A DNA stretch of 64,000 nucleotides from Methanothermococcus thermolithotrophicus DSM 2095 (lineage in GTDB: Archaea; AGJL01; Methanococci; Methanococcales; Methanococcaceae), in contig NZ_OX296583.1 in NCBI RefSeq assembly GCF_946463545.1, forward strand, positions 1,432,902 through 1,496,901, in the 5' to 3' direction. Below are positions 482-25,500 of the stretch, one piece after another. The notes below the pieces were generated by a model. That model worked only from the letters and a program-made list of their open reading frames with translations. It did no database searches and had not been told where the DNA came from. Position 1 is the first letter of the stretch. Each line of letters starts with the position of its first letter. The translations under genes were made by a program, and so were the position numbers.

Positions 482-483
482 TA

Positions 484-1140: not shown

Positions 1141-1148
1141 AATTATCC

Positions 1149-1808: not shown

Positions 1809-1810
1809 AT

Positions 1811-2034
1811 AATCACCTGAGTGAAACGAAGGTGAGTTACAAAAACCGTTAGGTTTTTGTTCAATCCCTACCTTAATAGGCGGAGGTTATTAAAAAAGTT
1901 AATGGTTATTTATCTAAATATTTGATTATATATGAAAATAGCTAATAAAATTAAATAAAGTTAACCTCCAAATCCTTTAAAAAAGGATTTGGAATCCCAA
2001 ATCCGATACCTCTTCACTTCGTGAAGAGATATAT
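1811..2034. repeat. Hairpin repeat elements in the selU-argJ intergenic region
   Basis: GAGTTACAAAAACCgttaGGTTTTTGTTCAATC (1834-1866), CCAAATCCtttaaaaaaGGATTTGG and CTCTTCACttcgGTGAAGAG. Confidence 0.6.
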
Positions 2035-2120
2035 TTTTAGCCGGTTTTGTATTGCTATATAGTGCCAAAGTTAGTGGAATGACTAAAAAATAAGCAAAAA
2101 TAAAAAAAGCAAAATTAAAA

Positions 2121-3374: not shown

Positions 3375-3429
3375 TTTTCCACCTGACTTTATAGTATTGA
3401 ATATAATCGCCATTTATGATATGATATTT

Positions 3430-4749
3430 TTATTTTTTGTGAAATTGCCATACTTTCAATTTTTCTATGGTAAAGTACAATGTAATGACAAATATAAAAA
3501 ATGATGATATTAAAGTTGCAGCAGCTCCTCCAACTATCCCAATGTTCTTAACCAAGATATAGTTTAAAATGGCATTTAACACCACGCCAAAGGATATAAC
3601 ATAAAGGGGCACTTTTGCATAACCAAGACCTTGCAGTGAAGCAGCACATATTGTATATGAGCCCATAAATGCAGCTGAGATTGACAGTATCTTCAAGCTT
3701 AGGGATGATTCATAATAATCTATATTGAAGAACAGTATAAGCAATTCCTTTGAAAATATGAGGAACATAAATAAAAACGGAGTTACAATTCCTAAATTCA
3801 TCAGTATGGCTTTTTTAAAGTAATTTACATCCTTTGTTTTTGCGATTCTTGGAATTAATGGTATTGATATTGAAGATGCAAATAAAAAAAGAGCTCTTGA
3901 CAGTAGTGAAGCATAACCATATAATCCGTTTAACTGTGGGCCCAATATTGACATTATAAATATACTGTCCAAATCGCTTAAAAGTCTGTATGATGCTGTT
4001 CCAAGGGCTATAGGTATCGAATAAAGTATGACTTTTTTAACCATCGGGTTTTTAACCATTAATTTAAAACTTCTTATTTTATTTTTAGGTATCAAATTAT
4101 TTTTGGCTATAAAGTAGAATCCTAAAAGTCCTCCGATAATATAACCTAAAGATATGGATAAAATACCGCCCATCACACCGATAAGTGAAGCTAAAAAGAT
4201 TGAAAATATTATTTTTGAAGTATGCTCTGCTATCCAAGTTTTAGAGAGCTCCTTTATTTTCAAGCTACCCTGCAAAACTCCTCTATTCCATGATATAAAT
4301 GCTGAAAATGGGAGGGTCAAGGCTATGATATAATAGATATTAGCATCTAAGTTTTTGTAGTATCCTCCCAAAAAATACTTTAAAAAAATGGTGAATATTC
4401 CACCAATCAATGAAAAAATCAACATTACATTTAATACTCCGTAAATCCAAGATGTTTCATTATAATGGGATTTATTGTCGTGTTTGTATTCGGAAATAAA
4501 TTTTGCCATTGCCGGGGGTATTCCAGAGCAGAAAAAAATAACCAAAGAATCTAAAATAGGTAATACTCCCCTTAAAGTTCCAAAACCCTCTGTTCCAAGT
4601 ATGTAAGCCATTAAAAAGAAAAATATGTAGGATGCACCTTTTGAATAAATATTTGAGAATATCATGTAGAAACTATCTTTCAATAGGCCTTCTTTTCTAA
4701 GGGAATTGAGAACTTTCTTTGATTTTAGATTTTTAAATTTTTTTAACAT
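3430..4749 (-). CDS. Polysaccharide biosynthesis protein / Wzx-like flippase (MOP superfamily)
   Basis: About 12-14 predicted hydrophobic helices. Composition is typical of oligosaccharide flippases. Confidence 0.65.
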   Translation of the reverse strand: MLKKFKNLKSKKVLNSLRKEGLLKDSFYMIFSNIYSKGASYIFFFLMAYILGTEGFGTLRGVLPILDSLVIFFCSGIPPAMAKFISEYKHDNKSHYNETSWIYGVLNVMLIFSLIGGIFTIFLKYFLGGYYKNLDANIYYIIALTLPFSAFISWNRGVLQGSLKIKELSKTWIAEHTSKIIFSIFLASLIGVMGGILSISLGYIIGGLLGFYFIAKNNLIPKNKIRSFKLMVKNPMVKKVILYSIPIALGTASYRLLSDLDSIFIMSILGPQLNGLYGYASLLSRALFLFASSISIPLIPRIAKTKDVNYFKKAILMNLGIVTPFLFMFLIFSKELLILFFNIDYYESSLSLKILSISAAFMGSYTICAASLQGLGYAKVPLYVISFGVVLNAILNYILVKNIGIVGGAAATLISSFFIFVITLYFTIEKLKVWQFHKK

Positions 4750-4848
4750 AATCTCACTAAAAGAAAAATTTTATTATTAATGTTTAAACTTAAAAAAGTG
4801 TTATATAAAGAATGTACTCATTGAGTGAAGCAGAATATCCCTTGTAGA

Positions 4849-5844
4849 TTAAACCAGCTCTCCATTAAACGCCTTATTTAATATGGACTCTTTTAACTCT
4901 CTGAATATATTCAATTCTCTTTCCTGTAATTCTTCCAACCTTTTTATTTTCTCGGTTAAAATGTCTAAATAATTTACTATCTCCAACTGTCTTTCTAGAT
5001 TAGGTTGATTGTTTTTGTATGGGATTGGGATTGATAAATTATCAAATACTTCTTTTGAAATAGATGGAATTTCCGAGTCTATGGCATTTTCATTAGGAAT
5101 TGAAAAATAGTGTTTTATAAAATAATAAATAAACTTATTATAAAGATCGTTATTTATAGACGTTGATATTCTCCCAATATCTGAAATGAGAATATTATCT
5201 AGTTCTTCCATGCTTGTTATTTCATTTAATTTAACTAATTCCCAACCTTCTTTATCTGCTATTTCCCTAAAAATTTTATTTAAAACCGAGCTAAATAAAC
5301 CCCTTGTTTCACCTATTGATTTTTGTTTTAACTCTATTGCGTTATCCAAATCTTTAAAAAGGTACTCTATTTTGTCTATAATTTGTTTTTGTTTTTCAAG
5401 CGGGGGTAATAAAAATTCGAATGATTTTATTTCATCCCATGAGCTCTGTGGGTTCATTTCTTGCATGGTTTTGTTAACAAAATTTAAGAAACTTTCAGAG
5501 CTCATGGCAATTAAAAGATATTTTGAATAAATTTTAGCAATATCTGGAGTTAATACAAGTATATCTGTCGAACAGGCTCCATCTACATCTGACAAGACGG
5601 CCTTATTCAAATATTGGCTTGGTTTTCCATATAAAATATCTCCAGCATAAAATTTGTTTTTGCCATCCTCAACTTCCTTTGGGCTACCATAATTGGATAA
5701 ATGCCATTCATTGCTTTTAATGTGTTCCAAACCAACATAAACATTTTCATCCTTCATCTCTAAGGGGCTAATCTGCTCTTCTCGAGTATTGCATACTTCC
5801 CCCAATTTAACCCATTCCCAACCTTCTGGTATATTATATTCCAT
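4849..5844 (-). CDS. hsdS: Type I restriction-modification specificity subunit HsdS (two short target-recognition domains)
   Basis: Two EGWEW/EGWELVKL target-recognition-domain starts are present. A central conserved LPPLEKQ..I repeat and the C-terminal ...LEELQERE....LNKAFNGEL motif are present. Probable ATG is at 5844, preceded by GGTGA. No hsdM or hsdR is nearby. Confidence 0.75.
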   Translation of the reverse strand: MEYNIPEGWEWVKLGEVCNTREEQISPLEMKDENVYVGLEHIKSNEWHLSNYGSPKEVEDGKNKFYAGDILYGKPSQYLNKAVLSDVDGACSTDILVLTPDIAKIYSKYLLIAMSSESFLNFVNKTMQEMNPQSSWDEIKSFEFLLPPLEKQKQIIDKIEYLFKDLDNAIELKQKSIGETRGLFSSVLNKIFREIADKEGWELVKLNEITSMEELDNILISDIGRISTSINNDLYNKFIYYFIKHYFSIPNENAIDSEIPSISKEVFDNLSIPIPYKNNQPNLERQLEIVNYLDILTEKIKRLEELQERELNIFRELKESILNKAFNGELV

Positions 5845-6066
5845 AAATTCACCCACAACGATTTTAATTATAATAAATGTTTTAACTTCATTCTTTTAAA
5901 ACTTCATATGTTCTTCATATTTAATTCCTTTTATACACTTGTATCGAAATGATTAACAAGTAAATTCAAACTTATTTTAATATAAATCACTCTTCTACAT
6001 CCTTTCCTTAAATAATCCACTGTCATAGGTGTATTTTTTTCGCTTCGATTACTCCGACTACTGTTT

Positions 6067-6534
6067 TTATTCGAGCTCCTTTAAAATTTTCTCAATGATG
6101 GGTTTTAATTTTGTGAGCCCCTTTCTAATCAGTTTCCAAATTAAATTATAATCAGCATCCCAATATTGGTAAAGTAGGCTGTTTTCTATTTCTTCTAATT
6201 TTTTAAAAGGTACATTTTTATATTTTTTCTTAAATTCTTCATCAATATATTTTGACGCTTCCCCTATAATTATCAAACATTGAGATACTGCATCTTTTGT
6301 TAGTTTGTCATTTAAAAATTCTTTGTAATTCATATTTTTTGTAAATTCGATGGTGTAATTAATATTTTCTAAAATATCAGTTAAAAATACTTTATTATTT
6401 TTTTCAAATTTGTATATTAATTCGTCATCAGTTGATTTTATTAATTCTGATTTAATATTGTTTTTAAGTATTAAATTTATATTTTCATTAAATAAGTTCT
6501 CCAAATAATTTTCTAAACTTACATAATTATCCAA
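6067..6534 (-). CDS. HEPN-like protein; upstream in-frame sequence (6535-6660) encodes a truncated minimal-nucleotidyltransferase motif
   Basis: The frame stays open upstream to 6660 and encodes ...TPDIDILVEFEDE..., the nucleotidyltransferase catalytic motif. There is no start codon or GS motif. This looks like a 5'-truncated MNT-HEPN fusion next to a hairpin repeat. Confidence 0.35.
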   Translation of the reverse strand: MDNYVSLENYLENLFNENINLILKNNIKSELIKSTDDELIYKFEKNNKVFLTDILENINYTIEFTKNMNYKEFLNDKLTKDAVSQCLIIIGEASKYIDEEFKKKYKNVPFKKLEEIENSLLYQYWDADYNLIWKLIRKGLTKLKPIIEKILKELE

Positions 6535-6686
6535 ATTTTCATACTCATCTTCAAATTCAACTAAAATATCAATATCGGGTGTTTCTTGCTCCCATTTTGG
6601 TAAATCCTTTAATATTCCGATAGTTTTAACTTTGTATTTTTCTTTAGTTCTTTTTGTACTCTAAAAGTATGTTTTTTATTTCGTTT

Positions 6687-6740
6687 AAGGTTTTCGTAGC
6701 GAAGCGGAGAGCTACAAAAACCGAAGGTTTTTGTTTAATC
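6687..6740. repeat. Hairpin repeat element upstream of the truncated MNT-HEPN gene
   Basis: GTAGCgaagcggagaGCTAC, then ACAAAAACCgaaGGTTTTTGTTTAATC. Confidence 0.65.
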
Positions 6741-6816
6741 ATGATATCCCCTCGGAGCTCCCAAAAGTATATATTATGTTAATATCGTATTAATATTATA
6801 TAAATAAAAGGTGGTG

Positions 6817-7065
6817 TTAATGGTTAAAGCAATAGTCAATATTTCAGATGAAAACAATCAAGTAATTAACATTATAAAAGCAAAATACAACCTTAAAGAC
6901 AAAAGCGAAGCGATAAATAAGATAATAGAAGAATACGCAGAAATATTATTAGAACCAGAGTTAAAACCTGATTATGTTGAGAAAATAAAAAGAATTATGG
7001 AAAATGAAACACCCATACATATCGGCTCTGTTGAAGAACTAAATAAAAGATATTTGGGTGAATAG
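6817..7065 (+). CDS. RelB-like antitoxin (small DNA-binding protein)
   Basis: 82 aa, GGTGG ribosome-binding site. Its stop TAG overlaps the ATG of the downstream relE-like gene (TAGATG). Confidence 0.5.
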   Translation, partial: LMVKAIVNISDENNQVINIIKAKYNLKDKSEAINKIIEEYAEILLEPELKPDYVEKIKRIMENETPIHIGSVEELNKRYLGE

Positions 7066-7365
7066 ATGTATGATATTGAAATCATGCCCTCGTTGGATAG
7101 GATACTTACAAAATTATCTAAAAAAGATGGGAAAAAAGTAGAAATCATCTTAAAAAAGATTAGTGAAATAAACAAAAATCCACACCACTATAAAAATTTA
7201 AGAACACCAATGGAAGATTTTAAAAGAGTTCATATTGATAAAAGTTTTGTTTTAATATTTACTGTGGATGATAATGAAAAGAGAGTTATATTTGTAGATG
7301 TTGCTCACCATGATGAGATATATAAAAATAAAAGAATATCAAAAATAAAGAAAATATTGCAATAA
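7066..7365 (+). CDS. relE: RelE/ParE-family toxin
   Basis: 99 aa, basic, with a C-terminal ...KRVIFVDVAHHDEIY pattern typical of archaeal RelE. It is translationally coupled to the antitoxin. Confidence 0.6.
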   Translation: MYDIEIMPSLDRILTKLSKKDGKKVEIILKKISEINKNPHHYKNLRTPMEDFKRVHIDKSFVLIFTVDDNEKRVIFVDVAHHDEIYKNKRISKIKKILQ

Positions 7366-7566
7366 CCATATTTTTAAACTGTATTGAACCATACAGCACG
7401 TTTTATACTCCTGGAAATAACAAAGGCATATATTTAAATACTCTAAGCGCGCAGTATAAAAACCAAAATAACAAATACAACAAGGAACCACACAATAACA
7501 TAACAATAATAATTCTAAAAATAGCAAACATCAAATAATACTCTTTAAATAGTGCAGTGCTAAAAA

Positions 7567-8313
7567 CTAAACTTGCCACTTTTTTTCAAGCAAGTTTTCC
7601 ACTGACTCTTTATGAATTCCCACTGAATATCTTTCCCCATCTAACTCTATTACTGCAAAACTTCTGGATTTTTCAGACGAATCAACCCTAATATATAAAC
7701 CTCCATAATCCATCCTTGTTAAAGTATATTCTGTAAAATGCAAATGCCCATTAAGCACAATTTTTGGTTTTATCAAATTAATGGTATCCATAATCAATTT
7801 TGAACCTTTAGATATTCTGAATTTAAAACATTCCAATTCATTAGAAGAATACACAGGCAATTCAGGAGTTTCATGACAGAGAAAAAAGTCTATTGAGTAA
7901 AGAGACGTTTGAGTTTCCTCAAGAAAATTCCTTGCCTTTATTATAAATGAATCACCCCTTTGCCTTGGCACACCCTTCTTCATTAATCTCTTTTCACTAT
8001 AAATGCCATTAACTCCACATATTTTCAAACCGCAAACTTCAACCACTTCAAAATCCTGCAAAAGCGCCGACCTACCAAGACTGGGGGCAATAATCTGAGT
8101 GAGCTCTTGCATATTCTCATGATTTCCAAAAATTGTAAGGAGGGGTATTTTCTCTAGAATTGGTTGAATAGAATTTCTTGTTAATCCTTCGTCCCAATCT
8201 CCTGCTGATAGGAGTAAATCTGGCCGGGTTTCTATTATGATTTGATTTAACCATTCAAATTGAGCATTTTCTATCATAGTAGTATGCAAATCACTAATAA
8301 ATAGAATTCTCAT
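7567..8313 (-). CDS. Calcineurin-like metallophosphoesterase
   Basis: DLH, GDW.E, GNHE and GHLH metal-ligand motifs are present. Confidence 0.7.
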   Translation of the reverse strand: MRILFISDLHTTMIENAQFEWLNQIIIETRPDLLLSAGDWDEGLTRNSIQPILEKIPLLTIFGNHENMQELTQIIAPSLGRSALLQDFEVVEVCGLKICGVNGIYSEKRLMKKGVPRQRGDSFIIKARNFLEETQTSLYSIDFFLCHETPELPVYSSNELECFKFRISKGSKLIMDTINLIKPKIVLNGHLHFTEYTLTRMDYGGLYIRVDSSEKSRSFAVIELDGERYSVGIHKESVENLLEKKWQV

Positions 8314-8486
8314 ATTATCCCATAATTGTTATAACTGTTATTTTTCTGCATTTGAAGAAACTTACTAGGTTAAATGTTTGCGTATTTTTGAATATAATCG
8401 AACTTTATAATCGAGTGAGATCTACAGTTTTATTACTTGGCAAATATATTAACACATTAAATTTCAATTAAAGAGAGGACTATACT

Positions 8487-8514
8487 ATTTAAATAGTCTT
8501 AAACTGCGCCGTAC
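8487..8514. repeat. 28-bp direct repeat, left copy (ATTTAAATAGTCTTAAACTGCGCCGTAC)
   Basis: 25 of 28 positions match the copy at 19059-19086. Contains a palindromic ACTATTTAAATAGT core. Confidence 0.6.
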
Positions 8515-9949
8515 TCCAAAAAAAGGACATAAATCAACTTAAAAGTATAAAAATACCACTATAAATTACAAAGGCATAATCCCATCCAATTCAATACAAA
8601 ATAATGACCGATTTCTTTTTTTAATTTATTATCCACCGTAATCATTACTACACTGTTATCCATCATCCACAAACTTACTATTCCCTATTACCGGACCTGG
8701 AGGTTATTGCCCAACACCACCAAAAGGAGCTCTCTCACTAGCATATACTTATTAAGAGAACTAGGCACACTTGATCCAAATAGTCTGTTTTATTTAAAAT
8801 ATATTATTTTTTCTTTTAGAAGTGAATAAAAGTATTTAAAAAACATGCCTCCGTAATATTACAAAGGCATATATTCAATAAGGTTAACATTGGCATATAT
8901 TGTGTGAATGGAAAAGTAGAGAATAATATAAGTTTTTCTGATTTTTTCTAATAATTGGCGTTAAATGCGCCTCTGGTTAAGTTTCTTATGTTGGATGTTA
9001 TGTTTAAAAAACTTAAGATATGAGTAAAAATAAAATACAAGGAAGTAAATATTTACAACTTAAGTCTATATCTATCCTTTAATAGGTATTGAAAATGTTA
9101 GGTACCTTCGGATGTATGAACATGCGCCATATTTATTATATATTTCATCAAGTTTTTCATTGATTTGTTCATTTTTTCGCTTAGCAATTCATGGTTGGTG
9201 CTAACATCCTCTGCAAGAGATTTCTTTTAAGTTTTTTCATTAATTTTACATCTTTAAATTTATTTACCAAAAATTCAGACCAATCATGCTCCTTGCAAGC
9301 ATATATAAACAACTCATCCCTAACGAAGAACCTATACCTGTTTTAAAATCTTATCTTCAAATTAGTGGATAAAAAATAGAATACAGCGCTAAAAATCTAT
9401 GATACTACTGAGTCCTATTAAAATAGTTAGATAATGCCTTATAGATTAAGTTAGTCATCAAAACGAAGGGCCAAGGCTGGTTTTTACTAAAATTAAGATT
9501 ATTAACATATTTCAGATGTATGAACATGCGCCACATCATATGGTGTTAAATACACTTAAATTTCTTATAAATTGCGCTATTTAGTATTTATTGGACAATT
9601 GATTATATTGTGCCTTTGTAATATATTACAAGGGCATATACTAGTTCTGGATACTGTATAGAAAAAACTATTCGATGCTAATGATAGGTTAAAAATGAAG
9701 ATACGAAAACTTATAAAACTTTAAGCAATTTAAACTTATATACTGATGAAGAAGAGAAAAATGAAAAATTATTTAAAAGATTAAAAAAAGAAAATTAATA
9801 ATTTCCTACTTTGCTTTTTATGGGGGATATAATGGGGAATATTATGGTTTTAGAACTAATGAATTAATTGAACAAGAAGAAATAGACGAAATACATGTTT
9901 CTGGATTGTTATGGAAATTTAGATTACATATATAAAAATTTGGCAATTG

Positions 9950-10250
9950 TTGGATATGGGGGCGATTGTTTATACTTTTGGTATTAATACTGGTAAAAAG
10001 GTTTGGGAGTTTGAAACAAAAAGGGGTAATCTCATTTTGTAAGTATGGCAATATTGTGATGGTTGGATGTTATGATGATGCATTTATGCCTTAAATTCAA
10101 ATAATGGCTCTAAACTTGGGAGTTTGAGGCGAGTAGTAGTATAGAGGGTCAATGAAAAAAGATATTTTAGTGATGAAATGTAATATCGGGCATATTTATG
10201 CTTTTGATTTTAATATAATATCGGATAATCTCTTAAAAAGTAAATAAATG
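9950..10250 (+). pseudogene. Degraded PQQ-like beta-propeller gene remnant
   Basis: Broken frames encode ...AIVYTFGINTGKKVWEFETKRGN... and ...DDAF.ALNSNNGSKL.EFE....KKDILVMKCNIGHIYAFDFN. These are classic propeller blades interrupted by stops and frameshifts. Confidence 0.45.
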
Positions 10251-10336
10251 TTTTAACCGTATCGCCCTTAACGGGCTTCGTGCCTTATTGTGAGGGAACT
10301 ATAGTTGTATATATAGGATTACAATAGGGGGACATT

Positions 10337-13300
10337 ATGAATACTGATTTATCATTTTTAACTAATGAAAAGGGCAATAAACTTGTAGATAGATTTTCAA
10401 TACTATTGAAAGATACTAAATTTTTTGACTGTCTGGTTGGTTATTTTTATGCTAGTGGATTTTATGCATTATATAAATCATTAGAAAATACTGAAAAAAT
10501 TAGAATACTCGTAGGTATCAATACGGATAAAAAAACTTTTGATTTAATTCAGGAGGCTGCGGGGGACATTAAAAAATATAGACTATCATTCAAAGAAGTT
10601 AAAGAAAATTTTTCAGAAAGCATAATTTCAGAAATGGAAACTTCTGAAGACTCATGCACTGTTGAAGAAGGAATTAAAAAATTCATTGAATGGCTTAAAT
10701 CTGGAAAACTTGAAATAAGGGTATATCCCAAAGCTAAAATCCATGCAAAACTTTACATAATGAGTTTTAAAGAAGGGGATAGGGATAAAGGCAGAGTCAT
10801 TACAGGTTCAAGCAACTTCACGCGCTCTGGATTGGTGGATAATCTTGAATTCAATGTGGAATTAAAAACCAGGTCTGACTATGAATTTGCATTAAATAAA
10901 TTTAATGAATTATGGGAGGATTCGGTAGATGTTTCGGAAGAGTACGTTAGAACAGTTAATAAAAAAACATGGTTAAATGAGGACATCACGCCGTATGAAT
11001 TATATTTAAAATTCCTTTACGAATACATGAAGGAAAAAATAAATTTAGATTTAACTGATGAATTTGAAAGTAAATTCCGACCTGATAATTTTATGGATTT
11101 AAAATATCAAAGGGATGCAGTCCAAGATGCAAAACTTAAACTTGAAGAATATGGAGGAGTTTTTATTTCCGATGTTGTTGGTTTGGGAAAAACATACATA
11201 GCCACAATGTTGGTTCAGCAACTTGGTGGTGAAACTCTTGTAATTGCTCCGCCAGTATTGATTGATGAAAGAAATCCAGGCTCTTGGAAAAATGCCTTTT
11301 ATGATTTTGGAGTTAGGGGAAGATTTGTATCAAGGGGCAATTTAGATATGGCATTTGAATATGGTATTGAAAACTTTAAAAATATTATAATTGATGAATC
11401 TCATTATTTTAGAAATGAATCTACGGAGATGTATGAAAAATTATTTAGGATATGCAGTGGAAAACGGGTAATATTGGTTTCTGCAACTCCGTTAAATAAT
11501 AAGCCCATGGATATTCTTGCCCAGATAAAATTGTTTCAAAATGTTCATAATTCCACACTCCCAAATCCAAAGGTAAGGGACCTTGAAAAATTCTTTAAAA
11601 AATTAGATGCAAGACTTAAAGGAGTAGATAGGCGAAAGGACAAAGAAAAATATATGAAAATTGTTCAGGAGAATGCAAAAGAAATTCGTGAAAATGTTTT
11701 ACAGTATTTAATGGTAAGAAGGACTAGAAAAAGTATTGAGAAGTATTATTCAAAAGATTTGGAAAAACAGGGTTTGAAATTTCCAGAAGTTCAGGACCCA
11801 AAGCCAGTTTATTATGAATTTGATGAAAAGTTAGATTCAATTTTTGAAGAAACCCTTAATTTAATTACAAAAGAGTTAAAATATGCAAGATATACTCCAA
11901 TGCTATATTATAAAGGGAGAGAATTTGATAACCGAATTATTCAGCCACAAAAGAATATGGCAGGATTTATGAAAACCATGCTTTTAAAACGGCTGGAGAG
12001 TAGTTTTCACGCATTCAAGATGTCAATTAATAGGTTTATAGGTTATTACGAAAAATTTATAGCTGGATGTGAGGATGGTAATGTTTATATCAGTAAAAAA
12101 CATCTATCCAAAGTTTTTGAGTTTCAGGAAAACGATGATGAGGAGTCCATTGAAAAGTTAATAAGTGAGGGAAAGGTGGAAATCTACCCTATTAAAGATT
12201 TTGAGCCTAAACTTATTGATGACTTAAAATATGATTTAGAGATTCTAAAACATATAAAAGAAATGTGGAGCTCCGTTGATGAAGACCCGAAACTTGATAA
12301 ATTAATCGATATTTTAGAAACAGATGATGTGTTAAAGGATAATAAGGTAATAATATTTACAGAATCAGAAGAAACTGCAAAATATCTTGAAAGGGAATTA
12401 AATCCCTTGTTTAATAATAAAGTTTTGGCATTTTCTGGAACTTCTGACAATAGTTTAAGAAAAATTATAACTGAAAATTTTGATGGAAAATCAAAGGTTA
12501 AAAAGGATGAATATATGATTTTAATTTCAACAGAAGTTCTTTCAGAAGGTGTAAATTTACATAGGTCAAATGTGGTAATTAACTACGACATTCCTTGGAA
12601 TCCTTCAAGAATGATGCAGAGAGTGGGGCGTATAAACAGAGTAGATTCCAAATTTGATAAAATATATATTTATAACTTCTTTCCAGCAACAAAAATAAAT
12701 GAAAATATGGGTTTGAAGGAAGCCGCAGAGGCTAAAATTAGAAGTTTCATTGAAATGCTTGGAACTGATTCTAGGTTATTAACCGATGAAGATATAAAAT
12801 CCTTTGACTTATTTTCACGCCTTAACTCAAAAGAAACAGTCATTGGGGAAGATGAGGACGACCCTGAGTTGGCATATTTAGCATATTTGAGAGATATTCG
12901 AGACAATGATAAGGAATTATTTGATAAAATAAAAAACCTTCCTAAAAAAGCAAGGACTGCAAAAAAACATAATGAGAATTATAATTCACTGATTACATTC
13001 TTTAAAAAGGGAAAAATGAGAAAGATATATCAAACTACACCAGAGGGAGTTAAAGAACTTGATTTTTATAAGGCCGCAGAGATTCTAAAAGCAGATATTG
13101 ATACAAAAAAGATGAAAATTGGAATGGACTATTATGCTCATCTTGATATGCTTAAGAAAGAATTTAATAAAGTATTCGAAGAGGAACATGTTATTTCAAA
13201 AATTAAAATAAGAAGAAGTAGGAATGAGTCTAAATTAATTAAGTTAATAAAAGCCATAAAACAGAATGAAAGAAGGCTCACGGATGATGATGTAGAGTAT

Positions 13301-13540
13301 CTCGACAGGGTGTTGAAACTTATTGAAATAGGCGGTGTATCTAAAAATACCATAAAAACTATACTGGATAATATTAAAAAAATAAATAATAATAGTGGCA
13401 TGCTTGATTTATTCAAAATGTATAACGAGATAAAAAAAGGAATACCTTATGATTTATTCCAAAAATTAGAATTTAACTCATCGGCAAATATTGAGGGGCC
13501 TAAGGAAATAATTCTTTCTGAATATTTAGTGGGGAAGTAA
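10337..13540 (+). CDS. PLD-family nuclease fused to SNF2-family helicase (defense-type helicase-nuclease)
   Basis: N-terminal HxK...GSxN phospholipase-D motif (KIHAKLYIM...GSSNFT). SNF2 motifs GLGKT, DESH and SAT are present. The C-terminal helicase domain has the ...QRVGRINR motif. Confidence 0.85.
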   Translation: MNTDLSFLTNEKGNKLVDRFSILLKDTKFFDCLVGYFYASGFYALYKSLENTEKIRILVGINTDKKTFDLIQEAAGDIKKYRLSFKEVKENFSESIISEMETSEDSCTVEEGIKKFIEWLKSGKLEIRVYPKAKIHAKLYIMSFKEGDRDKGRVITGSSNFTRSGLVDNLEFNVELKTRSDYEFALNKFNELWEDSVDVSEEYVRTVNKKTWLNEDITPYELYLKFLYEYMKEKINLDLTDEFESKFRPDNFMDLKYQRDAVQDAKLKLEEYGGVFISDVVGLGKTYIATMLVQQLGGETLVIAPPVLIDERNPGSWKNAFYDFGVRGRFVSRGNLDMAFEYGIENFKNIIIDESHYFRNESTEMYEKLFRICSGKRVILVSATPLNNKPMDILAQIKLFQNVHNSTLPNPKVRDLEKFFKKLDARLKGVDRRKDKEKYMKIVQENAKEIRENVLQYLMVRRTRKSIEKYYSKDLEKQGLKFPEVQDPKPVYYEFDEKLDSIFEETLNLITKELKYARYTPMLYYKGREFDNRIIQPQKNMAGFMKTMLLKRLESSFHAFKMSINRFIGYYEKFIAGCEDGNVYISKKHLSKVFEFQENDDEESIEKLISEGKVEIYPIKDFEPKLIDDLKYDLEILKHIKEMWSSVDEDPKLDKLIDILETDDVLKDNKVIIFTESEETAKYLERELNPLFNNKVLAFSGTSDNSLRKIITENFDGKSKVKKDEYMILISTEVLSEGVNLHRSNVVINYDIPWNPSRMMQRVGRINRVDSKFDKIYIYNFFPATKINENMGLKEAAEAKIRSFIEMLGTDSRLLTDEDIKSFDLFSRLNSKETVIGEDEDDPELAYLAYLRDIRDNDKELFDKIKNLPKKARTAKKHNENYNSLITFFKKGKMRKIYQTTPEGVKELDFYKAAEILKADIDTKKMKIGMDYYAHLDMLKKEFNKVFEEEHVISKIKIRRSRNESKLIKLIKAIKQNERRLTDDDVEYLDRVLKLIEIGGVSKNTIKTILDNIKKINNNSGMLDLFKMYNEIKKGIPYDLFQKLEFNSSANIEGPKEIILSEYLVGK

Positions 13541-13541
13541 A

Positions 13542-15143
13542 ATGGATAGAAAAAATGCCGTAAAACTTGTTGAAAAAACTTTTGGGGGAGAGTTTAATGA
13601 GGATAGGTATTTAGAATTCGTTATCGAGATGTTTGGAGACAGTAGTTTTTTAAAATCTCCTAAGGAATATTCGATGTGGGAAGAATATGCTGAATATACT
13701 GATTCTCTCAAATATTACGGGACATATACGGACAGTTCCAATAAAACAATAGATGTTCTATCTGTGAGATTAAAAAAAGATAAATATGTTACTAAGTCGA
13801 GGACTGTGCAAAGGAACATTATTTTAAAGTGGATTGGGGGTACAAACAAAGATGGTGCATTAGTTGCATTTTACAGTGATGAGCTCGACGACTGGCGGTT
13901 TTCATTTGTTAAAATGGAGTATAAAATTACAGAAGATTTTAAAATTGAAAAGGGTTTTACTCCTGCTAAAAGGTGCTCCTTTTTAGTTGGGAAAAATGGG
14001 GCAAACTATACATGCAAAAAAAATTTTTTAAGATTGATAGTAAATGAAAATAACCCTGCTTTGGAAGAAATTGAAAACGCTTTCAATGTTGAAAATATAT
14101 CTGATGAGTTTTTAAGAAAGTATGAAAATTTATTTTCGGGTAATACTCATAACTTAAAAATTGAAGAATCACAAATAATGGACTTAAAACATATAATGTT
14201 AGATTATGGGCGTTTGCCACTTGATAATCATCAAAAAAATATTTTAGATAAACTATTGAAAACCACAAGTAAAAACATTAAACGTTTCTTAATTAAGTAC
14301 AAAAACAACTGTAATTATATACCCATCTCTGATTTTAAATTGAGAATGTTATTGTCGGATGAAGAATTAATTTTGTGTATCTTTAAAAATATGAAGTATG
14401 TGGGGAAAAATATAATATATTTGGATAAAACAGAATCAGAAATTGAAAAGGAACGCATTGAAAAAAACCAATTTAATAAATTGTTACTAAAATATAAAGA
14501 CTTATATTGTCCAGATGGTCAAATTGAGATCATATATAAGATTCTTAAGTCTCAGACAGATGAACTAAAAAATATGTTGCTAAATTATGAACATATGTCA
14601 CTTGATAATCATCAAAAGCAAATTTTAGATACAATACTGAAAACTATCGGTAGGAAGATATCATACATGAATATTTGGGTACATGATAAAGGCGGGATTA
14701 CGAATACATACTCTTACAAAAAATACAAAATGAAAATGAGTAATAAAGACTTTGCATTATTTATTCTTAAAAATGCAAAGTGGAAAAATGGGACACTATA
14801 TATTAATGAGCATAAGTGTGAAAAACAGTCATCAACTTTAAAGAAAGACAATACAGTCAAAAGAAGGGTAAAAACTAAAATGGTTATAACTTCATCAAAG
14901 AAAGTTGGAAAGTTGGAAAATATAATCATAAATAATAAATTAATGGTTAAAAAAGTTATGAGCTGTAAGTTTAATGATAACAATAATAAACTAATAGTTT
15001 ATGTGGAGCATAATAAAAAACCATTAAAAATAACTATTATTGGAAAAAATAATAAACATATTTGTTATATAAACCAGAAGGGACTTAAAAATAAAGAAAT
15101 AAAAGAAATTAAAAATAAGTATATAACACATTTAACAATTTGA
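13542..15143 (+). CDS. Paralog of the Type IIG enzyme N-terminal nuclease-like domain fused to a K/N-rich C-terminus with an internal ~30-aa duplication
   Basis: The first ~200 aa are near-identical to the N-terminus of the 15225 gene. Some DNA tracts are 100% identical. A candidate PD-(D/E)xK core is D...ELDDW...VKMEYK. The C-terminus carries two LDNHQK.ILD..LKT repeats. Confidence 0.55.
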   Translation: MDRKNAVKLVEKTFGGEFNEDRYLEFVIEMFGDSSFLKSPKEYSMWEEYAEYTDSLKYYGTYTDSSNKTIDVLSVRLKKDKYVTKSRTVQRNIILKWIGGTNKDGALVAFYSDELDDWRFSFVKMEYKITEDFKIEKGFTPAKRCSFLVGKNGANYTCKKNFLRLIVNENNPALEEIENAFNVENISDEFLRKYENLFSGNTHNLKIEESQIMDLKHIMLDYGRLPLDNHQKNILDKLLKTTSKNIKRFLIKYKNNCNYIPISDFKLRMLLSDEELILCIFKNMKYVGKNIIYLDKTESEIEKERIEKNQFNKLLLKYKDLYCPDGQIEIIYKILKSQTDELKNMLLNYEHMSLDNHQKQILDTILKTIGRKISYMNIWVHDKGGITNTYSYKKYKMKMSNKDFALFILKNAKWKNGTLYINEHKCEKQSSTLKKDNTVKRRVKTKMVITSSKKVGKLENIIINNKLMVKKVMSCKFNDNNNKLIVYVEHNKKPLKITIIGKNNKHICYINQKGLKNKEIKEIKNKYITHLTI

Positions 15144-15224
15144 ATATATATTGATTCCAAAAATAGATTTAATCGGTTAGTAGGTATGAGGAACTTAAAT
15201 AAAACTTTTTTGAGTAGTTAATAG

Positions 15225-18200
15225 GTGGAACCAATGGATAGAAAAAATGCCGTAAAACTTGTTGAAAAAACTTTTGGGGGAGAGTTTAATGAGGATAGGT
15301 ATTTAGATTTTGTTGTTGAAATGTTTGGGGATAGTAGTTTTTTAAAAGAATCTCCTAAGGAATACCTGTGGAAAGAATATAGTGAATATGCCGACTATCT
15401 TAAGTATTACGGCACATATAAGGATAGCTCCAATAAAACAATAGATATTTTATCTGTAAAATTAAAGAAAAACAAGTATAGGGATAGATCAAGGACTATG
15501 CAGCGGAACCTTATTGCAAAATGGCTTGAAAATGCAAATAAGGACGCTGCAATAGTTGCATTTTATGGCGATGAGCTCGATGACTGGCGGTTTTCATTTG
15601 TTAAAATGGAGTATAAAATTACAGAAGATTTTAAAATTGAAAAGGGTTTTACTCCTGCTAAAAGGTGCTCCTTTTTAGTTGGAAAGAACGAACCAAACCA
15701 TACCTGTAAAGAAAGATTTCTTGGCATGATAATAGCTGAGAAAAACCCAACTTTAGAGGAAATTGAAGAAGCATTCAGTGTTGAAAATGTATCCGATGAG
15801 TTTTTCAAAGAATATAAGGAGTTATTTTTAGATTTAAAAGATGAGCTCGACAAATTATTGGAATGTGATAAGGACATTAAAAAGGAATTTGAAGAAAAAG
15901 AGATTTCTACAGTGGATTTCGCTAAGAAATTGCTTGGACAGATTGTATTTATATACTTTCTCCAAAAAAGGGCTGGCTTGGTGTTCAAAGAGACCCTGAA
16001 ACTGGGAAGTTTAAAGAATGGGGAGCTGGTCCAAAAGATTTTTTAAAGAGGTTGTATGCGGGAGAATATGCCAAATATGAAAATTTCTTTAAGGAGATGT
16101 TGGAACCATTATTTTATGAAGCGTTATCTACTCAGAGGGATGATTACTATTCTCCTTTTGACTGTAAAATCCCTTTCTTAAATGGGGGACTATTTGAACC
16201 TATTGGGGGCTACAATTGGAAAGAAATTAATTTAAAATTGGACAATGGAATTTTTGAAAAAATTTTTAATGTCTTTGATAAGTATAATTTCACAATAAAA
16301 GAGGATGAACCACTGGATAAAGAGGTTGCTATTGACCCTGAAATGCTTGGGAAGGTTTTTGAAAACCTATTGGAGATTAAAGATAGGAAATCAAAAGGGG
16401 CATTCTATACTCCAAGGGAAATAGTGCATTATATGTGCCAGCAGAGTTTGATTAATTATTTGGAAACGAATACGGACATTCCACGGGAAGATATTGAAAA
16501 ATTCATATATCTCAGTGGATTTTCAACTTCGGAATATCAAAGAAAATTAATTGAACTTGAAAAAATAAATGAACAGATGAAAAAGTTTAACAATGTTTTA
16601 TCAAAAGGATACAGAAAATTATTAAATGAGCGAATAAAGTTAATTAAAAATATAAACTTTCCAAAAAGCATATTGGATAATATAGAAAAAGTTGATGAGC
16701 TATTAAGATGCGTAAAAATAGCAGACCCTGCGGTTGGTTCTGGTGCTTTTCCAGTTGGGATTATGAATGAGATTGTAAAGGCAAGGTCTATATTAACACC
16801 TTTCTTAATAGCAAAGAATAGTGCAAAAATGGAAGACCGGACACTTTATAAATTAAAATGGGAAACTATTCAAAACTGTTTATACGGCGTAGATATTGAT
16901 TCATCTGCTGTGGAAATTACAAAACTTAGGTTTTGGTTATCGTTGGTGGTGGATGAGGATAGCCTAAATAATATAAGGGCATTGCCAAATTTAGACCATA
17001 AAATAATGTGTGGAAATAGTTTGTTGGATGAATTTGAAGGAATAAAACTTTTTGATGATAGTATTCTTGAAATTCCCGAAGAAGAAGATAAAGAACCTGA
17101 GGAATTAAAAAAATTGAAAATTGAAAGGGAAAATTTAGAAAAAACCGCTAAGGAATTGATGTTAAAACAAAAATGGAAGGAACTTGAACCAGTAAGTAAA
17201 AAATTAAATGAATTATATGAATATATTAAAAAATTGGAAAATCAATATAAAAAATCAAAAAATAAAAATTTGAATGATTTACAATCTCAAATTACACTGT
17301 CCGATGCTATAAATATTAGGCGGAAAAAATCACAGGAGAAACTTGCAGAGCTCAAAAAATTGTATAAAGAATATTTCAATGCCCGAGCTAAACGGGATAA
17401 AAATGAGTATAAAGAAAAAATAGAAAAACTTGAATGGGAGCTCATAGAGGAAACACTAATAGAATCAGGAAATGAAGATGCACTGGAAAAATTGAAGCAG
17501 TATAAAAAATCAAGGTCAAAACCATTTTTCTTATGGAAGTTGTACTTTTCAGATGTATTTAGGAGAGAAAACCCTGGCTTTGATATAGTAATAGGTAATC
17601 CACCTTATGTAAGGCAGGAAAAAATAAAAGAATTAAAACCCGCACTTGAAAGAAATTATAAAACATATACTGGAGTTGCTGACCTTTATGTTTATTTCTA
17701 TGAGTTGGGATATAATATTTTAAGAGATGAGGGAGTTTTAGCATATATTACAAGTAATAAATGGATGAGAGCAAATTATGGCGAAAAATTAAGAAAATTC
17801 TTTAAAGAAAATACGAGTATAAAGGAAATTATTGATTTTGGAGGGGAAAAGGTATTTGAAACTGCAACAGTGGATACAAATATTTTGATATTTAAAAAAG
17901 GATATAAAAAAGATAATTTAATGTCTGCGGTGGATTTCACAAAAATTAAAAATTATAATGGATTTATCGATGGGATAAAAAGCAATAGGTTTAAAATACC
18001 GCAATCAGATTTGAAAGAAAATTCCTTTAATTTATCGCCACCAGAGGAATTAAATTTAAAAAAGAAGATTGAAAAAATTGGAATACCTTTAAAGGATTGG
18101 GATATAAAAATAAATTATGGAATTAAAACAGGTTTTAACGATGCTTTTATAATTGATGGAAAAACTAAGGATGAATTAATTAAAAAAGACCCAAAGAACA

Positions 18201-19048
18201 AAGAGATAATAAAACCGATTTTAAGGGGAAGGGATATAAAACGATATGGTTATGAATTTGCGGATTTATGGTTAATTTTTGTTCCTTGGCATTTTCCATT
18301 GCATAATAATTCATCAATTTCTGGGGCATCAGAGGAAGCCGAAAAGGCATTTAAGGAGCAATATCCTGATATATACAACCATTTGCTAAAATATAAGGAA
18401 AAATTAAGTAAACGAAATAAGGCTGAAACTGGAAAAAGATATGAATGGTATGCTTTACAGAGATGTGCCGCTTCGTATTATAAGGAGTTTGAGAAAGAAA
18501 AAATAATTTATCCAGAATTTAGTAGTTCATCTTGCTTTTATTTTGACAATGGGAAATATTACACATCTGATACGGCATGGTTTATTGTTGGAGGTTCTAA
18601 ATATTTGATGGTATTACTTAACTCGAAGGTAATATGGTTTTACTTAGAAAACATGGTATCCCAGCTCGGTTCGAAAGCCCTTAGGATGAAAAAAATATAT
18701 TTAGAAAAACTACCTATCCCAAAAATCCCAGAAGACCAACAAATCCCATTCATAGAAAAAGCGGATAAAATGATTGAATTAAATAAAAAATTCATAAATA
18801 AAAAGAATGAATTTTTAAAATCATTAAACCTAACTAAAATTACTAAGAAATTAGAAACATTTTATAATTTAAGTTATGAAGAATTCCTAAAAGAATTAAA
18901 GAAGCAAAAAATTAATACAGATTCTTTAAACGATTTAGAAAACCGCTTCAACAGCTACAAAAAGGAATTAATGGAAATAAAACAGGAAATAGAAAAAACA
19001 GATAAAGAAATCGATAAAATGGTTTGTATAATCCTAAAAAAACTATAA
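15225..19048 (+). CDS. Type IIG restriction-modification enzyme (N-terminal nuclease domain plus gamma-class N6-adenine methyltransferase plus target-recognition domain), interrupted by a frameshift at a T6 run (16039-16044)
   Basis: The ORFs 15225-16046 and 16052-19048 join into one frame if T6 is read as T7. Methyltransferase motif X (GAFYTPREIV), motif I (ADPAVGSGAFP) and motif IV (GNPPYV) are present. Confidence 0.8.
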
Positions 19049-19058
19049 CATTTAAATA

Positions 19059-19086
19059 GTCTTAAATTACACCGTACAATATCTTA
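19059..19086. repeat. 28-bp direct repeat, right copy (ATTTAAATAGTCTTAAATTACACCGTAC)
   Basis: Matches the copy at 8487-8514. It lies immediately 3' of the Type IIG gene and abuts the stop of an hsdS fragment. Confidence 0.6.
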
Positions 19087-22457: not shown

Positions 22458-22502
22458 CTTTTTTAAACAGTAAATAATAAATTACAATAATTAAATGGTC
22501 AA

Positions 22503-25500
22503 TTAACTAAAATCAAACAAAGTTTGCTGACCATATTTCAAATCAAATTCTTCTAAGACTTTTTTTCCGATTTTATCTCCAAGCAAACTGATGACTTTTG
22601 ACTGGTTCTTTGGAATGTCATCTTTGCTTTTTATTCCAGCGTTGTATAGTTTTCTGGCCCTAACTCTTCCAACGTGTTTAATTTTGAGTAACTCAATGAT
22701 ATCTTTTTTAGCACCATACTCGAGTCTTATCTCCAATTCAGATAAACAGTCTTTGATTTGTTCATTTTTTAAATTTAATTGATTAAATATTTCTTTTGCA
22801 GAATATGCCATCCATTTAGCCTGTTCAACTTTGTACTTTAAAATCCCAGGTTCAATTCCATACCTTTTTAATATATCCTCCTCTGGAACCTCATTAATCC
22901 AGTCGTAGAACATCTTTGCAGTTTTAAAGCTTTCTAAATTTTCCCAGGAATAATCATCAATATTTAAGTCCATCATTTCTAAAATTAAATCTTCTTCTTC
23001 ATGATTTCTTACTCTTAAAGGGGGCCTCATTTCCGTGGTCATTGACAGTACATATAACATATAGAGCTCTAGATTTGTATTTAACTCAGAGGATTTGTTG
23101 ATCTTTTTTAATCCATCTATAATTATTTTTGCACTATATGGATCAATATACAGTTCTGAAACTCTTTTCCCAAGTTTTGTTGGTGTAAATGCAACGATAA
23201 AATCATAATCCTCTAAAAAATCAACGACTTCTTTTACATTCCTCAAAACTCCTTGGAGACTTCCATACTGGTGAGCATAAAATGTGTTTTTTATAAAGTT
23301 TTTTAAATCCATTTCATTTTCAACTTCCCTCGTGGATATCAATCCAAGGATATGGGTTCTAAGAACTTTTTGATTGGAAAGTTTTGAGTATATGTCCTCC
23401 ACCTTTCCAGTTAAGTATTCAAAACCTTTTTCAACATCGTTTGGATTTTTTATATAGACTATTCCTTCACCATAAGGATCTAAACCAGGTCTCCCGGCTC
23501 TTCCAATACATTGCTGAATTTCCATTTTTGAAATTGGAGCCATACCTCTACCGGAAAATCTCTTTAAATCCCTTACAATTGCTCTTCTACAAGGTAAATT
23601 TAGTCCAGCAGAGTTATGTACTATAAATCCATTTGCCACAACATAATGGTCATTTGTCCCATCATCTGGTAGTTCTATGTCATAAGCATATTTGTCATTT
23701 ACCTTTATTTTTTTAATTTCTTTGATCATGCTCCAATAAATATCTCCATCATAATATTCTTTTTTCCAACTATGTCTCATTTCTTTGTAGAGTGGCTTGC
23801 CACAAATTGGGCATTTTTCAAGATTTACTAAGAAGTCATACATTTCTTCTAAGTTCTCTTTATCTTTTATATTTTTATTAAGAAGATTCATTAAAATTTT
23901 TCCTTTATCATTTAGAGAATAATATACTCCTTTTTTATTTCCACCTATCTTTTCTCTTATGATAAACTCAAAATGGGGATTCTTTCTCTTTGAATAGTAG
24001 TTATTGTAGTTCATAACCAATTTTTTTCCATTTAATAGTTCAAAAAGTAATTTTACACGCTCTTTATTTAATTCATTCTGACTTTTTGTTCTTGGCTTAA
24101 ACATAGTTAAATCAATGCTAAATCCGCAATCACACCACATTTTAGCAATTTCCTTACTTTTTACGATTTCTTCCAATTTTCTTCTTTTTTCCTTGTGTCT
24201 CAGTGGAATATTTTCATAAAATCTTTTTACACTTACAAAATCACCAATTATTAGTTCATAAATATCTCTACTTTTGTATTCTTTATTATTTGTTGGCGAT
24301 CGAAGCGAATCCTTTGGATTCGCTGTCGAAGCAAATCGAAGATTTGCTGACTCACGAAACCTTCGGTTTCGTCGAGACTTACAAAACCTGAAGGTTTTGT
24401 TAAGCTTCATAACTTTTCCTTTTCTTTTTCTAATGGTGCTATGTATTCCAAACCTCAATAATGCTAATTGTAGTTTTTTGATTAGATTTTCTGATATCGA
24501 AGAGAATCCTATTTTCTTTCTGTTGGCATTAATGTATCCATCACTATCAAACAACCCTGCAATAAAGTGTGATAACTTTTCCAATGGAAGAATGTAAAAT
24601 ACATCAATATTTTTGTTATCCTTAGTGAGCATATTTAATTCATTAAATACTTCCCTTAGTCTTTTTGAATATACATAATGAGAAACATTTCCTTCCTCTT
24701 TAATTTTTAAAAAGTATTTTTTGTGAAGTTTAGAGTCATCAAAATTTGGCGGGTATTTTGGATTAAACGTAATATCGGGACTACCTCTAAATACATTTTT
24801 TTCGATAACACCGGTATAGCCATCTCCTATAAAATATCCAATGAAATAAAGGTCCCCATAGGATAAATCAATATCTCTTTCTTCAACCACTATTTTATCA
24901 GCAGTAGCCACATAGTCCCCCACTTTTAAATCCTTTGCTTCTTTTTCACAGGTCTCTTTTCCTTTTTTAACTAAGAACAAATGATTGGGGGTTGTGGTAA
25001 TTTTTAGCCCATTTGCGGTTTTTACAACAATATTATATTCATGTTGCGGGGTTTTATGAACTTTCCAACAATCCACTGGTCTTATTTTATTTCCACACAA
25101 TGCAAATACCTTTTCATTTTTATTCAATTCTGTAATCTTTTTAAATCCACTTTCTTGCAATATCTCGGTATTTGCATTTAAACAGAGTGTCGGAGTACAG
25201 CATATAACCTTTATCAGTTTCTTTCTGAATCCTTCTTCAACTATTTTCCTCTGTTCATAGGTAAGACCTGCATGGTGAAATGCCACCCCTTTTTCAATAC
25301 ATTCTGCAAGAGCTCTACAGGTTTCAGTTGGTGGATCGAATATGCTTAAAACTTCGTCTTTCAGTTTTTGAAGTTCGTGTTTTTCACTGTGGGATAAGTA
25401 TTTCTTTAAATTCAATTTTTTTGCTTCACTAACCGCTCCTCTCTTAGAATTACAAAAAATTAAACATGAACCATCTTCATCGATACAATCTACAACCAAA

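Follow-up and report, generated by a model that had tools for sequence, protein, structure and literature searches.

Type IIG restriction enzymes normally act alone, and restriction enzymes in which a phospholipase D (PLD) nuclease and a helicase share a single protein also exist. In type III and type I single-polypeptide (ISP) enzymes, a methylase/recognition unit is coupled to a motor-nuclease. Nucleases with a single HKD motif, among them Nuc and BfiI, act as dimers, and SNF2 proteins translocate on double-stranded DNA. Here, we studied a locus that holds related elements in a 64,000-nucleotide (nt) stretch of the genome of the archaeon Methanothermococcus thermolithotrophicus DSM 2095 (contig NZ_OX296583.1, positions 1,432,902 to 1,496,901 of the forward strand), referred to below as the window, with positions counted from its first letter. 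The block consists of a gene for a PLD-SNF2 fusion protein (gene i), a chimeric gene (gene ii), and a type IIG-like methylase gene (gene iii). On balance, we favor the reading that its core is a two-gene, ATP-dependent, type III/ISP-like restriction-modification (R-M)-like module, which would be off in this genome, with gene ii as an accessory gene or a scar.

Several described systems share parts of this gene content. Fusions of an HKD nuclease with a superfamily 2 (SF2) helicase are an accepted theme among restriction effectors, in the Type-2 bacteriophage exclusion (BREX)-related systems and in PbeABCD (PMC12839542, PMC10853773). A table in Milman et al. 2023 lists Cj0031-like type II R-M genes beside which a PLD + SNF coding sequence lies (PMC9881135). 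The HKD-Snf2 gene cluster C3a139 (Shah et al. 2018) was described solely by its location close to type III CRISPR-cas cassettes (PMC6546367). We found no name for the pairing of a PLD-SNF2 gene with a methylase gene in PADLOC, in NCBIfam, or in the literature searched (most subscription journals and REBASE lay outside its coverage), where passing mentions were found and no paper naming or testing the pair.

A conserved PLD-SNF2/methylase gene pair

Gene i codes for the 1067-amino-acid (aa) fusion of PLD and SNF2 domains that had been proposed in a sequence-only reading of this locus, a description borne out by the Pfam domains PLDc_2 (aa 44 to 193), SNF2-rel_dom, and Helicase_C. When 28 homologues were aligned (mean column identity of 71%), the single HKD motif (H136, K138, and G157-S-S-N160) and the ATPase motifs GLGKT (282 to 286), DExH (353 to 356), and QRVGRxxR (761 to 768) were invariant. 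The best profile match was PADLOC PDLC01075, "C3a139 HKD+Snf2" (4e-42), which covered aa 14 to 1015 of the 1067, and the PADLOC profiles of DrmD, HmaA (partial, 6e-25), BrxH, DpdE, and ZorD matched the ATPase core only. The NCBIfam model DISARM_DrmD reached 133.6 bits (cut-off of 610), in the ATPase region only, and phospholipD_antiphage reached 160 bits (cut-off of 1100); since both scores are far below the cut-offs, gene i belongs to neither family. Its own family is large, with at least 7997 clusters at an E value of ≤1e-20. Among the 120 matches listed, the relatives were 58 to 100% identical to gene i and nearly all full-length, with all but the first three at 58 to 64% identity. An identical copy is present in a metagenome-assembled genome of Methanothermococcus sp. 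(NCBI).

A scan of one genome per GTDB species gave 554 confirmed gene i relatives, from which 80 loci were kept. They come, among other groups, from archaea (Methanoperedens, Methanosarcinales, Methanobacterium, Woesearchaeota, Nanoarchaeota, Thermoplasmata, and Asgard) and from bacteria (Chloroflexota, Nitrospirota, Omnitrophota, Patescibacteria, and Bacteroidota). In 75 of the 80, gene i is followed directly, in the same orientation, by an open reading frame (ORF) that has both the N-terminal domain of gene iii (here called the N-domain) and the methylase; the remaining five contigs end at or just past gene i. The two genes overlap slightly or are a few nucleotides apart in most loci, the spacing being 0.3 to 2.6 kb where a gene has been inserted. 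ORF clustering showed no other recurrent neighbor family in the 80 loci, the next real neighbor being found in 8. The reciprocal look-up gave the same picture: N-domain ORFs on long contigs (P0192, P0159, and P0157) were just downstream of a PLD-SNF2 gene in three out of three cases; all three methylase genes there were fragmented, in a sample biased by the choice of short proteins. A Parabacteroides distasonis plasmid also carries a gene i homologue (33% identity) followed by an N-6 methylase of 1133 aa. The possibility that homologues of the two genes never co-occur elsewhere is thus discarded for gene i and the type IIG-like gene (75 of 80 loci and 3 of 3 reciprocal cases). The pair is near-obligate, codirectional, and often overlapping, and it combines the domain content described here with intact motifs; we take these data to support a real functional pair.

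The module that we favor could work as follows. The product of the second gene (ca. 1100 to 1270 aa), in which a conserved N-domain of ca. 200 aa is combined with helical, N6-adenine methyltransferase, and TaqI_C-type recognition domains, would supply sequence specificity and mark host DNA, and gene i would provide the ATP-driven restriction subunit, with its PLD nuclease and SNF2 motor. On unmodified sites, the methylase subunit would recruit or license the gene i protein, which would then translocate along DNA, and cutting would take place when two single-HKD domains pair. Complex formation, recruitment, and this mode of cutting are what we infer. Since gene i is intact beside a broken methylase gene (see below), its product may be harmless without its specificity partner and is presumably unable to attack DNA alone.

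A frameshift in the methylase gene

The sequence-only reading had described gene iii as an enzyme of ca. 1270 aa with a type IIG layout. The layout of methylase and recognition domains holds, but a frameshift splits the gene into two ORFs that lie in different frames. An A7 run inside the conserved motif FLQKKGW has lost 1 nt. The DNA at this point is CTCCAAAAAAGGG, with A6 at 15964 to 15969, and the 270-aa ORF ends with ...FIYFLQKRAGLVF...IF and a stop codon, where the relatives read FIYFLQKKGWLGV. Inserting a single A at this site opens a frame of 1271 aa with all the expected motifs. The repaired protein matched the PADLOC type IIG model PDLC03596 at 4e-164 and DrmMI at 2e-45, the latter partially, with Pfam hits to Eco57I (1.4e-42) and TaqI_C (5.6e-14) and the motifs NPPY and FYTP. 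The part after the break codes for the helical domain, a gamma-class N6-adenine methyltransferase (Eco57I family, NPPY), and a TaqI_C-type target-recognition domain. As in type IIG enzymes, the methyltransferase and the recognition domain lie in one polypeptide; there is no single intact frame for the whole gene. The nearest solved structures, CamA and BseCI, correspond to the methylase and recognition part only.

An intact A7 orthologue is carried by a metagenome contig (L007) that is 81.6% identical at the DNA level and collinear with positions 13343 to 18154 of the window. The split into 270 and 983 aa was found in every sister-strain assembly returned (L001, L002, L004 to L006, and L089 to L093), and therefore, the frameshift is not a one-off sequencing error. 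The QKKG motif is coded by runs of A6 to A8 in 19 of the 68 family members, so that the site appears intrinsically slip-prone. In three unrelated genomes, the methylase gene is in two or three ORFs beside an intact PLD-SNF2 gene, and two of the three are broken just after QKKGW; disruption of the methylase partner may thus be recurrent, in a sample biased to short proteins. Gene i itself is split into 1031 and 40 aa in two sister assemblies, L091 (3624 to 6826) and L093 (167 to 3369), suggesting ongoing decay of the module in this population. Given the 1-nt deletion in the methylase gene, the module here is most likely off, and it would more probably be dead than in a reversible phase-off state.

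The shared N-terminal domain

The N-domain, which opens both gene ii and gene iii, gave a confident AlphaFold2 model from an alignment of 74 sequences (predicted local distance difference test [pLDDT] score of 88.9). Foldseek against the PDB returned nothing below an E value of 1e-3 (template modeling score of about 0.25), a profile search against PDB sequences gave no match, and the canonical D...(D/E)xK pattern was not seen among the conserved columns. The label of putative PD-(D/E)xK nuclease, given to this domain on inspection of the sequence, therefore finds no clear match in the fold and profile searches. E153 and H156, conserved in at least 90% of the N-domains of the family, are replaced by G and Y in gene ii in both species, and the gene ii copy retains the invariant Arg, Trp, and Ser positions of the family.

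Origin and distribution of gene ii

That the first ca. 200 aa of gene ii duplicate the N terminus of gene iii was already apparent to the sequence-only reading and was confirmed, with 155 of 204 aa identical (76%). At the DNA level, this corresponds to direct repeats at 13541 to 14113 and 15233 to 15805, 1692 nt apart and 83 to 94% identical, with an identical stretch of ca. 100 nt. The homology extends upstream, where positions 15142 to 15233 are a decayed copy of the last ca. 90 nt of gene i. The remaining ca. 330 aa are rich in K, N, and I (18% K and 10% N) and include two repeats of ca. 127 aa (local alignment score of 133 versus 36 ± 6 for shuffled sequences), in agreement with the K/N-rich repeat domain proposed before. 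Gene ii evidently arose when ca. 1.7 kb entered the slot between the two core genes, made of a diverged second gene i/methylase junction plus ca. 1 kb of unique DNA. The layout (copy A, unique DNA, and copy B) fits a single-crossover insertion or an unequal exchange, the mechanisms that we infer for it, and not a designed paralogue.

The unique part has a very narrow distribution. A word-index search of 5.8 billion proteins with the gene ii C-terminal part found only itself, P0002, and P0003, and an exhaustive HMMER search of 1.84 billion representatives found only P0001 (the same protein) and P0003; P0002 and P0003 are metagenome orthologues of gene ii. In the same HMMER scan, 860 representatives matched the gene ii query, and the matches listed, apart from P0001 and P0003, cover the N-domain only, nearly always at the N terminus of proteins of 1000 to 1250 aa. 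Neither Pfam, NCBIfam, nor PADLOC assigned a family to the C-terminal part, and in the AlphaFold model of gene ii, the N-domain is confident and the remainder has pLDDT values of 30 to 65, unusable for a fold search. Sister assemblies with flanks ca. 99.5% identical are without the 1692 bp and have one chimeric copy running from the start of A to the end of B. The unique insert (14114 to 15141) is absent from L001, L002, and L004 to L006. Two crossover points between A and B could be located, at about aa 113 to 150 in P0125 and about aa 62 in P0124. The unique segment was found in no Logan-derived protein, which argues against a simple collapse of the repeats.

Compared with the orthologous L007/L008 sequences, the ratio of nonsynonymous to synonymous substitutions (dN/dS) was 0.23 for the gene ii N-domain (dN of 0.115), 0.29 to 0.31 for its C-terminal part (dN of 0.25 to 0.28 and dS of about 0.9), and 0.13 for gene iii (dN of 0.07). 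L007 (82% DNA identity) keeps the i-ii-iii order, and its gene ii copy ends early, at 442 aa, relative to P0002. Gene ii is thus more than a duplicated fragment without conservation, its dN/dS being about 0.3 between species of ca. 82% DNA identity. A three-gene system is not supported, as none of the 75 other loci has gene ii, its C-terminal part is confined to two close lineages, and sister strains lack it. Gene ii is probably a lineage-specific accessory gene or a recombination scar, under some constraint, and not part of the core module.

The slot that holds gene ii is occupied by other genes elsewhere. In ca. 23 loci, there is a gene between the pair, and none of them resembles gene ii or duplicates the N-domain. 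The cargo includes Schlafen/AlbA_2 plus HATPase_c_4 proteins (about 6 to 8 loci), Fic, RhuM-Fic, ORF6N, and AbiEii plus DUF6922, as well as NYN, PIN, Bro-N, and an ISL3 transposase (loci L026, L027, L031, L037, L039, L041, L048, L051, L058, L063, L073, L074, L079, L080, L084, and L088). The slot behaves like an insertion hotspot inside the operon and seems to have repeatedly received toxin-antitoxin and abortive-infection cargo.

Weighing the alternatives

Several points count against a two-gene, ATP-dependent module with gene ii as an addition. The 80 loci are the closest relatives only (51 to 65% identity, mostly 52 to 65%), and distant PLD-SNF2 homologues, in Thermus and Thermococcus, stand in a methylase-hypothetical-helicase order, which resembles other systems. 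In the literature searched, we found no characterized member and no experiment tying either protein to restriction or defense. The dN/dS of gene ii (about 0.23 to 0.31) means more constraint than in a pure scar, and the sister-strain deletions come from short-read assemblies, in which repeat collapse may still have played a part, although the unique segment is missing from all Logan-derived proteins. The constraint also counts in favor of a true three-gene system. Gene ii would then be a functional N-domain decoy or regulator that holds the nuclease-motor in check or senses invaders by taking the place of the methylase subunit on the PLD-SNF2 protein or on the same DNA or partner surface. Such a role would fit the preserved translational coupling of gene ii to gene i (1-nt gap), an N-domain that folds confidently like that of gene iii and keeps the invariant Arg, Trp, and Ser even with E153 and H156 lost in both species, a dN/dS of about 0.3 over ca. 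0.9 synonymous substitutions per site, and the i-ii-iii order conserved in L007. We nevertheless hold it to be improbable, given that gene ii is missing from 75 of 75 other loci and confined to two close lineages among 1.84 billion representatives, was deleted at least two times in sister strains, is shortened to 442 aa in L007 relative to P0002, has no confident fold in its C-terminal region, and is retained as a "decoy" where the protein that it would mimic is frameshifted. Similarly doubtful is the combination in which the pair is a distinct uncharacterized class of ATP-dependent R-M enzyme in many archaeal and bacterial groups, the N-domain is no nuclease and instead couples or licenses the motor, and gene ii, as a catalytically altered N-domain paralogue in Methanothermococcus, serves as a decoy that renders the nuclease-motor harmless while the methylase is off. 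The frameshift could also be a switch, with A6/A7 slippage toggling the methylase/specificity subunit in a phase-variable locus, as in the poly-G switch of Campylobacter Cj0031; related type IIG genes that are phase variable have been documented (PMC9881135 and its reference 45). The frameshift falls exactly in a homopolymer that codes for a conserved motif, runs of A6 to A8 occupy the same spot in 19 of 68 members, the A7 orthologue is intact, and further members are truncated soon after the motif (P0157, P0159, P0149, and L067). Set against this, all the sister-strain assemblies returned are off, with no on variant within the species, a run of 6 to 7 nt is short for frequent slippage, and gene i is frameshifted in L091 and L093 in a decay-like manner, so we regard a switch as conceivable and rather unlikely.

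Two further readings question the pair itself. Gene iii could be an autonomous type IIG enzyme that happens to lie beside an unrelated helicase-nuclease (type IV-like, of the SauUSI kind), as separate systems in a defense island, and the toxin-antitoxin genes and orphan HsdS nearby do give the region an island-like appearance. For independent systems, the pairing in three of three reciprocal look-ups would be unexpected, and so would the adjacency, order, and strand kept in 75 of 75 informative loci over a large number of archaeal and bacterial groups, the stop codon of one gene often overlapping the start codon of the next. Such strict pairing with PLD-SNF2 argues against the autonomy of gene iii and makes this reading very improbable. 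Hardly credible at all is a reduced or fused form of class 1 DISARM (the restriction-modification-associated defense island system), with DrmC and DrmD fused and DrmMI present. The content is similar (SNF2, PLD, and an N6-adenine methylase), and PADLOC and NCBIfam give partial matches to DrmD for gene i and to DrmMI for gene iii. However, the DrmA helicase and DrmB (DUF1998) are absent from the block, as the sequence-only reading had already observed, and from the 80 related loci as well; the DrmD score of 133.6 bits falls short of the cut-off of 610, and the match of gene iii to type IIG (4e-164) is much better than that to DrmMI (2e-45). The resemblance to DISARM pointed out in that reading thus fails as membership, for DrmD and DrmMI as for DrmA and DrmB.

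Locus layout and surroundings

The block reads as four head-to-tail ORFs on the plus strand (Table 1), versus the three codirectional genes described before; their placement and strand were correct. Overall, the earlier observations were largely right, apart from the missed frameshift in gene iii, and so was half of their interpretation: the pair appears real and poorly described, and it is neither DISARM nor a three-gene system. Positions 337 to 13990 of the window are 100% identical to the draft contig AQXV01000032.1 (assembly GCA_000376965.1), which stops within the repeat shared by gene ii and gene iii.

Table 1. Coordinates and strands of the features of the PLD-SNF2/methylase block and of broken methylase genes in related loci
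Feature	Position	Strand	Description
Left 36-nt direct repeat	8479-8514		ACTATACTATTTAAATAGTCTTAAACTGCGCCGTAC; internal palindrome (GACTAT...ATAGTC)
ORF-poor stretch	8515-10336		Stops in all six frames; between left repeat and gene i
Gene i	10337-13540	+	1067 aa, intact; PLD (HKD) at aa ~14-200, SNF2-type ATPase at aa ~255-820, conserved C-terminal region
Duplicated unit, copy A	13450-14113	+	Gene i 3'-terminal ~90 nt and 5'-terminal ~570 nt of a IIG-type gene; gives the gene ii N-domain
Gene ii	13542-15143	+	533-aa chimeric ORF; starts 1 nt past the gene i stop
Gene ii parts		+	aa 1-198, IIG N-domain paralogue; then lineage-specific K/N-rich region with two ~127-aa repeats
Unique insert	14114-15141	+	Codes for the orphan gene ii C-terminal part; internal repeats at 14185-14278 and 14566-14659
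Duplicated unit, copy B	15142-15805	+	Decayed, noncoding 3' end of gene i (15142-15233), followed by the gene iii 5' part
Gene iii 5' ORF	15225/15234-16046	+	273/270 aa; conserved N-domain, start of helical domain, out-of-frame tail
Frameshift site	15964-15969	+	A6 within conserved QKKG codons; A7 in the intact orthologue L007
Gene iii 3' part	15970-19048	+	Shifted frame; ORF callable from 16052 (16052-19048, 998 aa)
Right 36-nt direct repeat	19042-19077		Overlaps the gene iii stop codon
Broken methylase gene, L097	7001-10661		Position in that locus
Broken methylase gene, L098	7001-10309		Position in that locus
Broken methylase gene, L099	7001-10390		Position in that locus

The direct repeats said to bound the block are real: the two 36-nt copies are identical at 31 of 36 positions and bracket 8479 to 19077, including ca. 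1.8 kb of ORF-poor, decayed DNA. Their 17-mer core is present at exactly two places in the window, which is unlikely by chance (mean of 0.32 in shuffled sequences, 3 of 100 of which reach two). The repeats may mark an old integration or island boundary. In the ca. 2 kb upstream of gene i (8314 to 10336), no ORF exceeds 69 aa, with faint remnants of beta-propeller-like peptides around 9900 to 10250, and blastx of this stretch against the neighboring ORFs of related loci gave nothing; it looks like decayed gene remains.

Just upstream of the block are an orphan type I specificity subunit (Methylase_S) at 4849 to 5856 (minus strand), a HepT-like toxin gene at 6067 to 6534 (minus strand), and a DUF2683/ParE pair at 6811 to 7365 (plus strand), which place it in a small defense/toxin-antitoxin neighborhood. 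No CRISPR array or cas gene lies near the block. Rfam and tRNA scans of the window found no RNA genes, and a signal scan of bacterial type, applied here to an archaeal host, found no terminator-like sites and promoter-like sites no more frequent than in shuffled sequences. Farther downstream, positions 22503 to 26261 (minus strand) code for a 1252-aa archaeal DEAD/Hel308-type helicase, interrupted by an intein that carries a homing endonuclease domain of the LAGLIDADG type. A second strain-level indel is located at about 22460 to 22522, where the window is without ca. 1.9 kb of the sister assemblies (L001, 14103 to 16005) coding for three genes, FMN_red, MTH865, and an HTH_20/HTH_5 regulator.

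The block has six GAGCTC sites, where the rest of the window would predict 10.3 (P = 0.11). The low density reported for the block is thus not significant, and depletion as a mark of foreign origin was ruled out. Window-wide, there are 71 sites (e.g., 871, 2259, 15573, 15843, and 62729), with no common flanking context, against about 4 expected from the dinucleotide composition, an overrepresentation of about 18-fold. Many other 6-bp palindromes are absent from the window, CCTAGG, GCTAGC, and GTCGAC among them.

Significance and relationship to known systems

The local block appears to be one example of a widespread and so far unnamed module, with the PLD-SNF2 partner in at least 554 species genomes. 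Defense-annotation tools are without a dedicated model for this partner, for which the best PADLOC and NCBIfam profiles are partial or weak, and they match the methylase to type IIG. If the pair does act as one enzyme, a substantial group of the enzymes now predicted to be type IIG would belong, as subunits, to an ATP-dependent, translocating restriction system with a PLD nuclease, and their recognition sites and cleavage behavior may be mispredicted. In practical terms, the module of this genome is probably inactive.

Among the described genes, C3a139 "HKD+Snf2" (PDLC01075) gives the best full-length profile match to gene i; neither a function nor a methylase partner has been described for it, and the CRISPR-cas genes by which it is defined are absent near the block. 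In the Type-2 BREX-related/Hma-like systems and in PbeA of PbeABCD, an N-terminal HKD nuclease joined to an SF2/SNF2 helicase is the proposed effector beside a methylase, as could be the case for gene i, but the core DUF499 ATPase and DUF3780, or the CxC ABC ATPase and DndE, are absent here. A Hma/BREX-related reading was rejected, since a DUF499-type ATPase and DUF3780 are neither in the block nor conserved neighbors, and ARMADA and CRISPR-accessory readings were discarded because the required partner genes are missing. Class 1 DISARM and ARMADA also bring together an SNF2 helicase, a PLD nuclease, and a large N6-adenine methylase; they differ from the present locus in their DrmA/YprA-type helicase and DUF1998 protein, both absent here, and the scores of our proteins are far under the cut-offs. 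Gene iii has the type IIG layout of Eco57I, BpuSI, and Cj0031 (N-domain, helical domain, gamma N6-adenine methylase, and TaqI_C; PDLC03596, 4e-164) and departs from these enzymes in its strict pairing with PLD-SNF2, an N-domain without a clear endonuclease fold, and the frameshift in the window. There is a parallel with type III/ISP enzymes (EcoP15I Mod/Res and LlaGI), where a methyltransferase plus recognition domain confers specificity, an SF2 ATPase-nuclease carries out ATP-dependent restriction, and the genes are cotranscribed and tightly coupled. Unlike those enzymes, the pair described here would use an SNF2-type motor with a single-HKD PLD nuclease instead of a PD-(D/E)xK or Mrr nuclease, and its methylase is large, resembles Eco57I/type IIG proteins, and has a conserved N-domain in addition.

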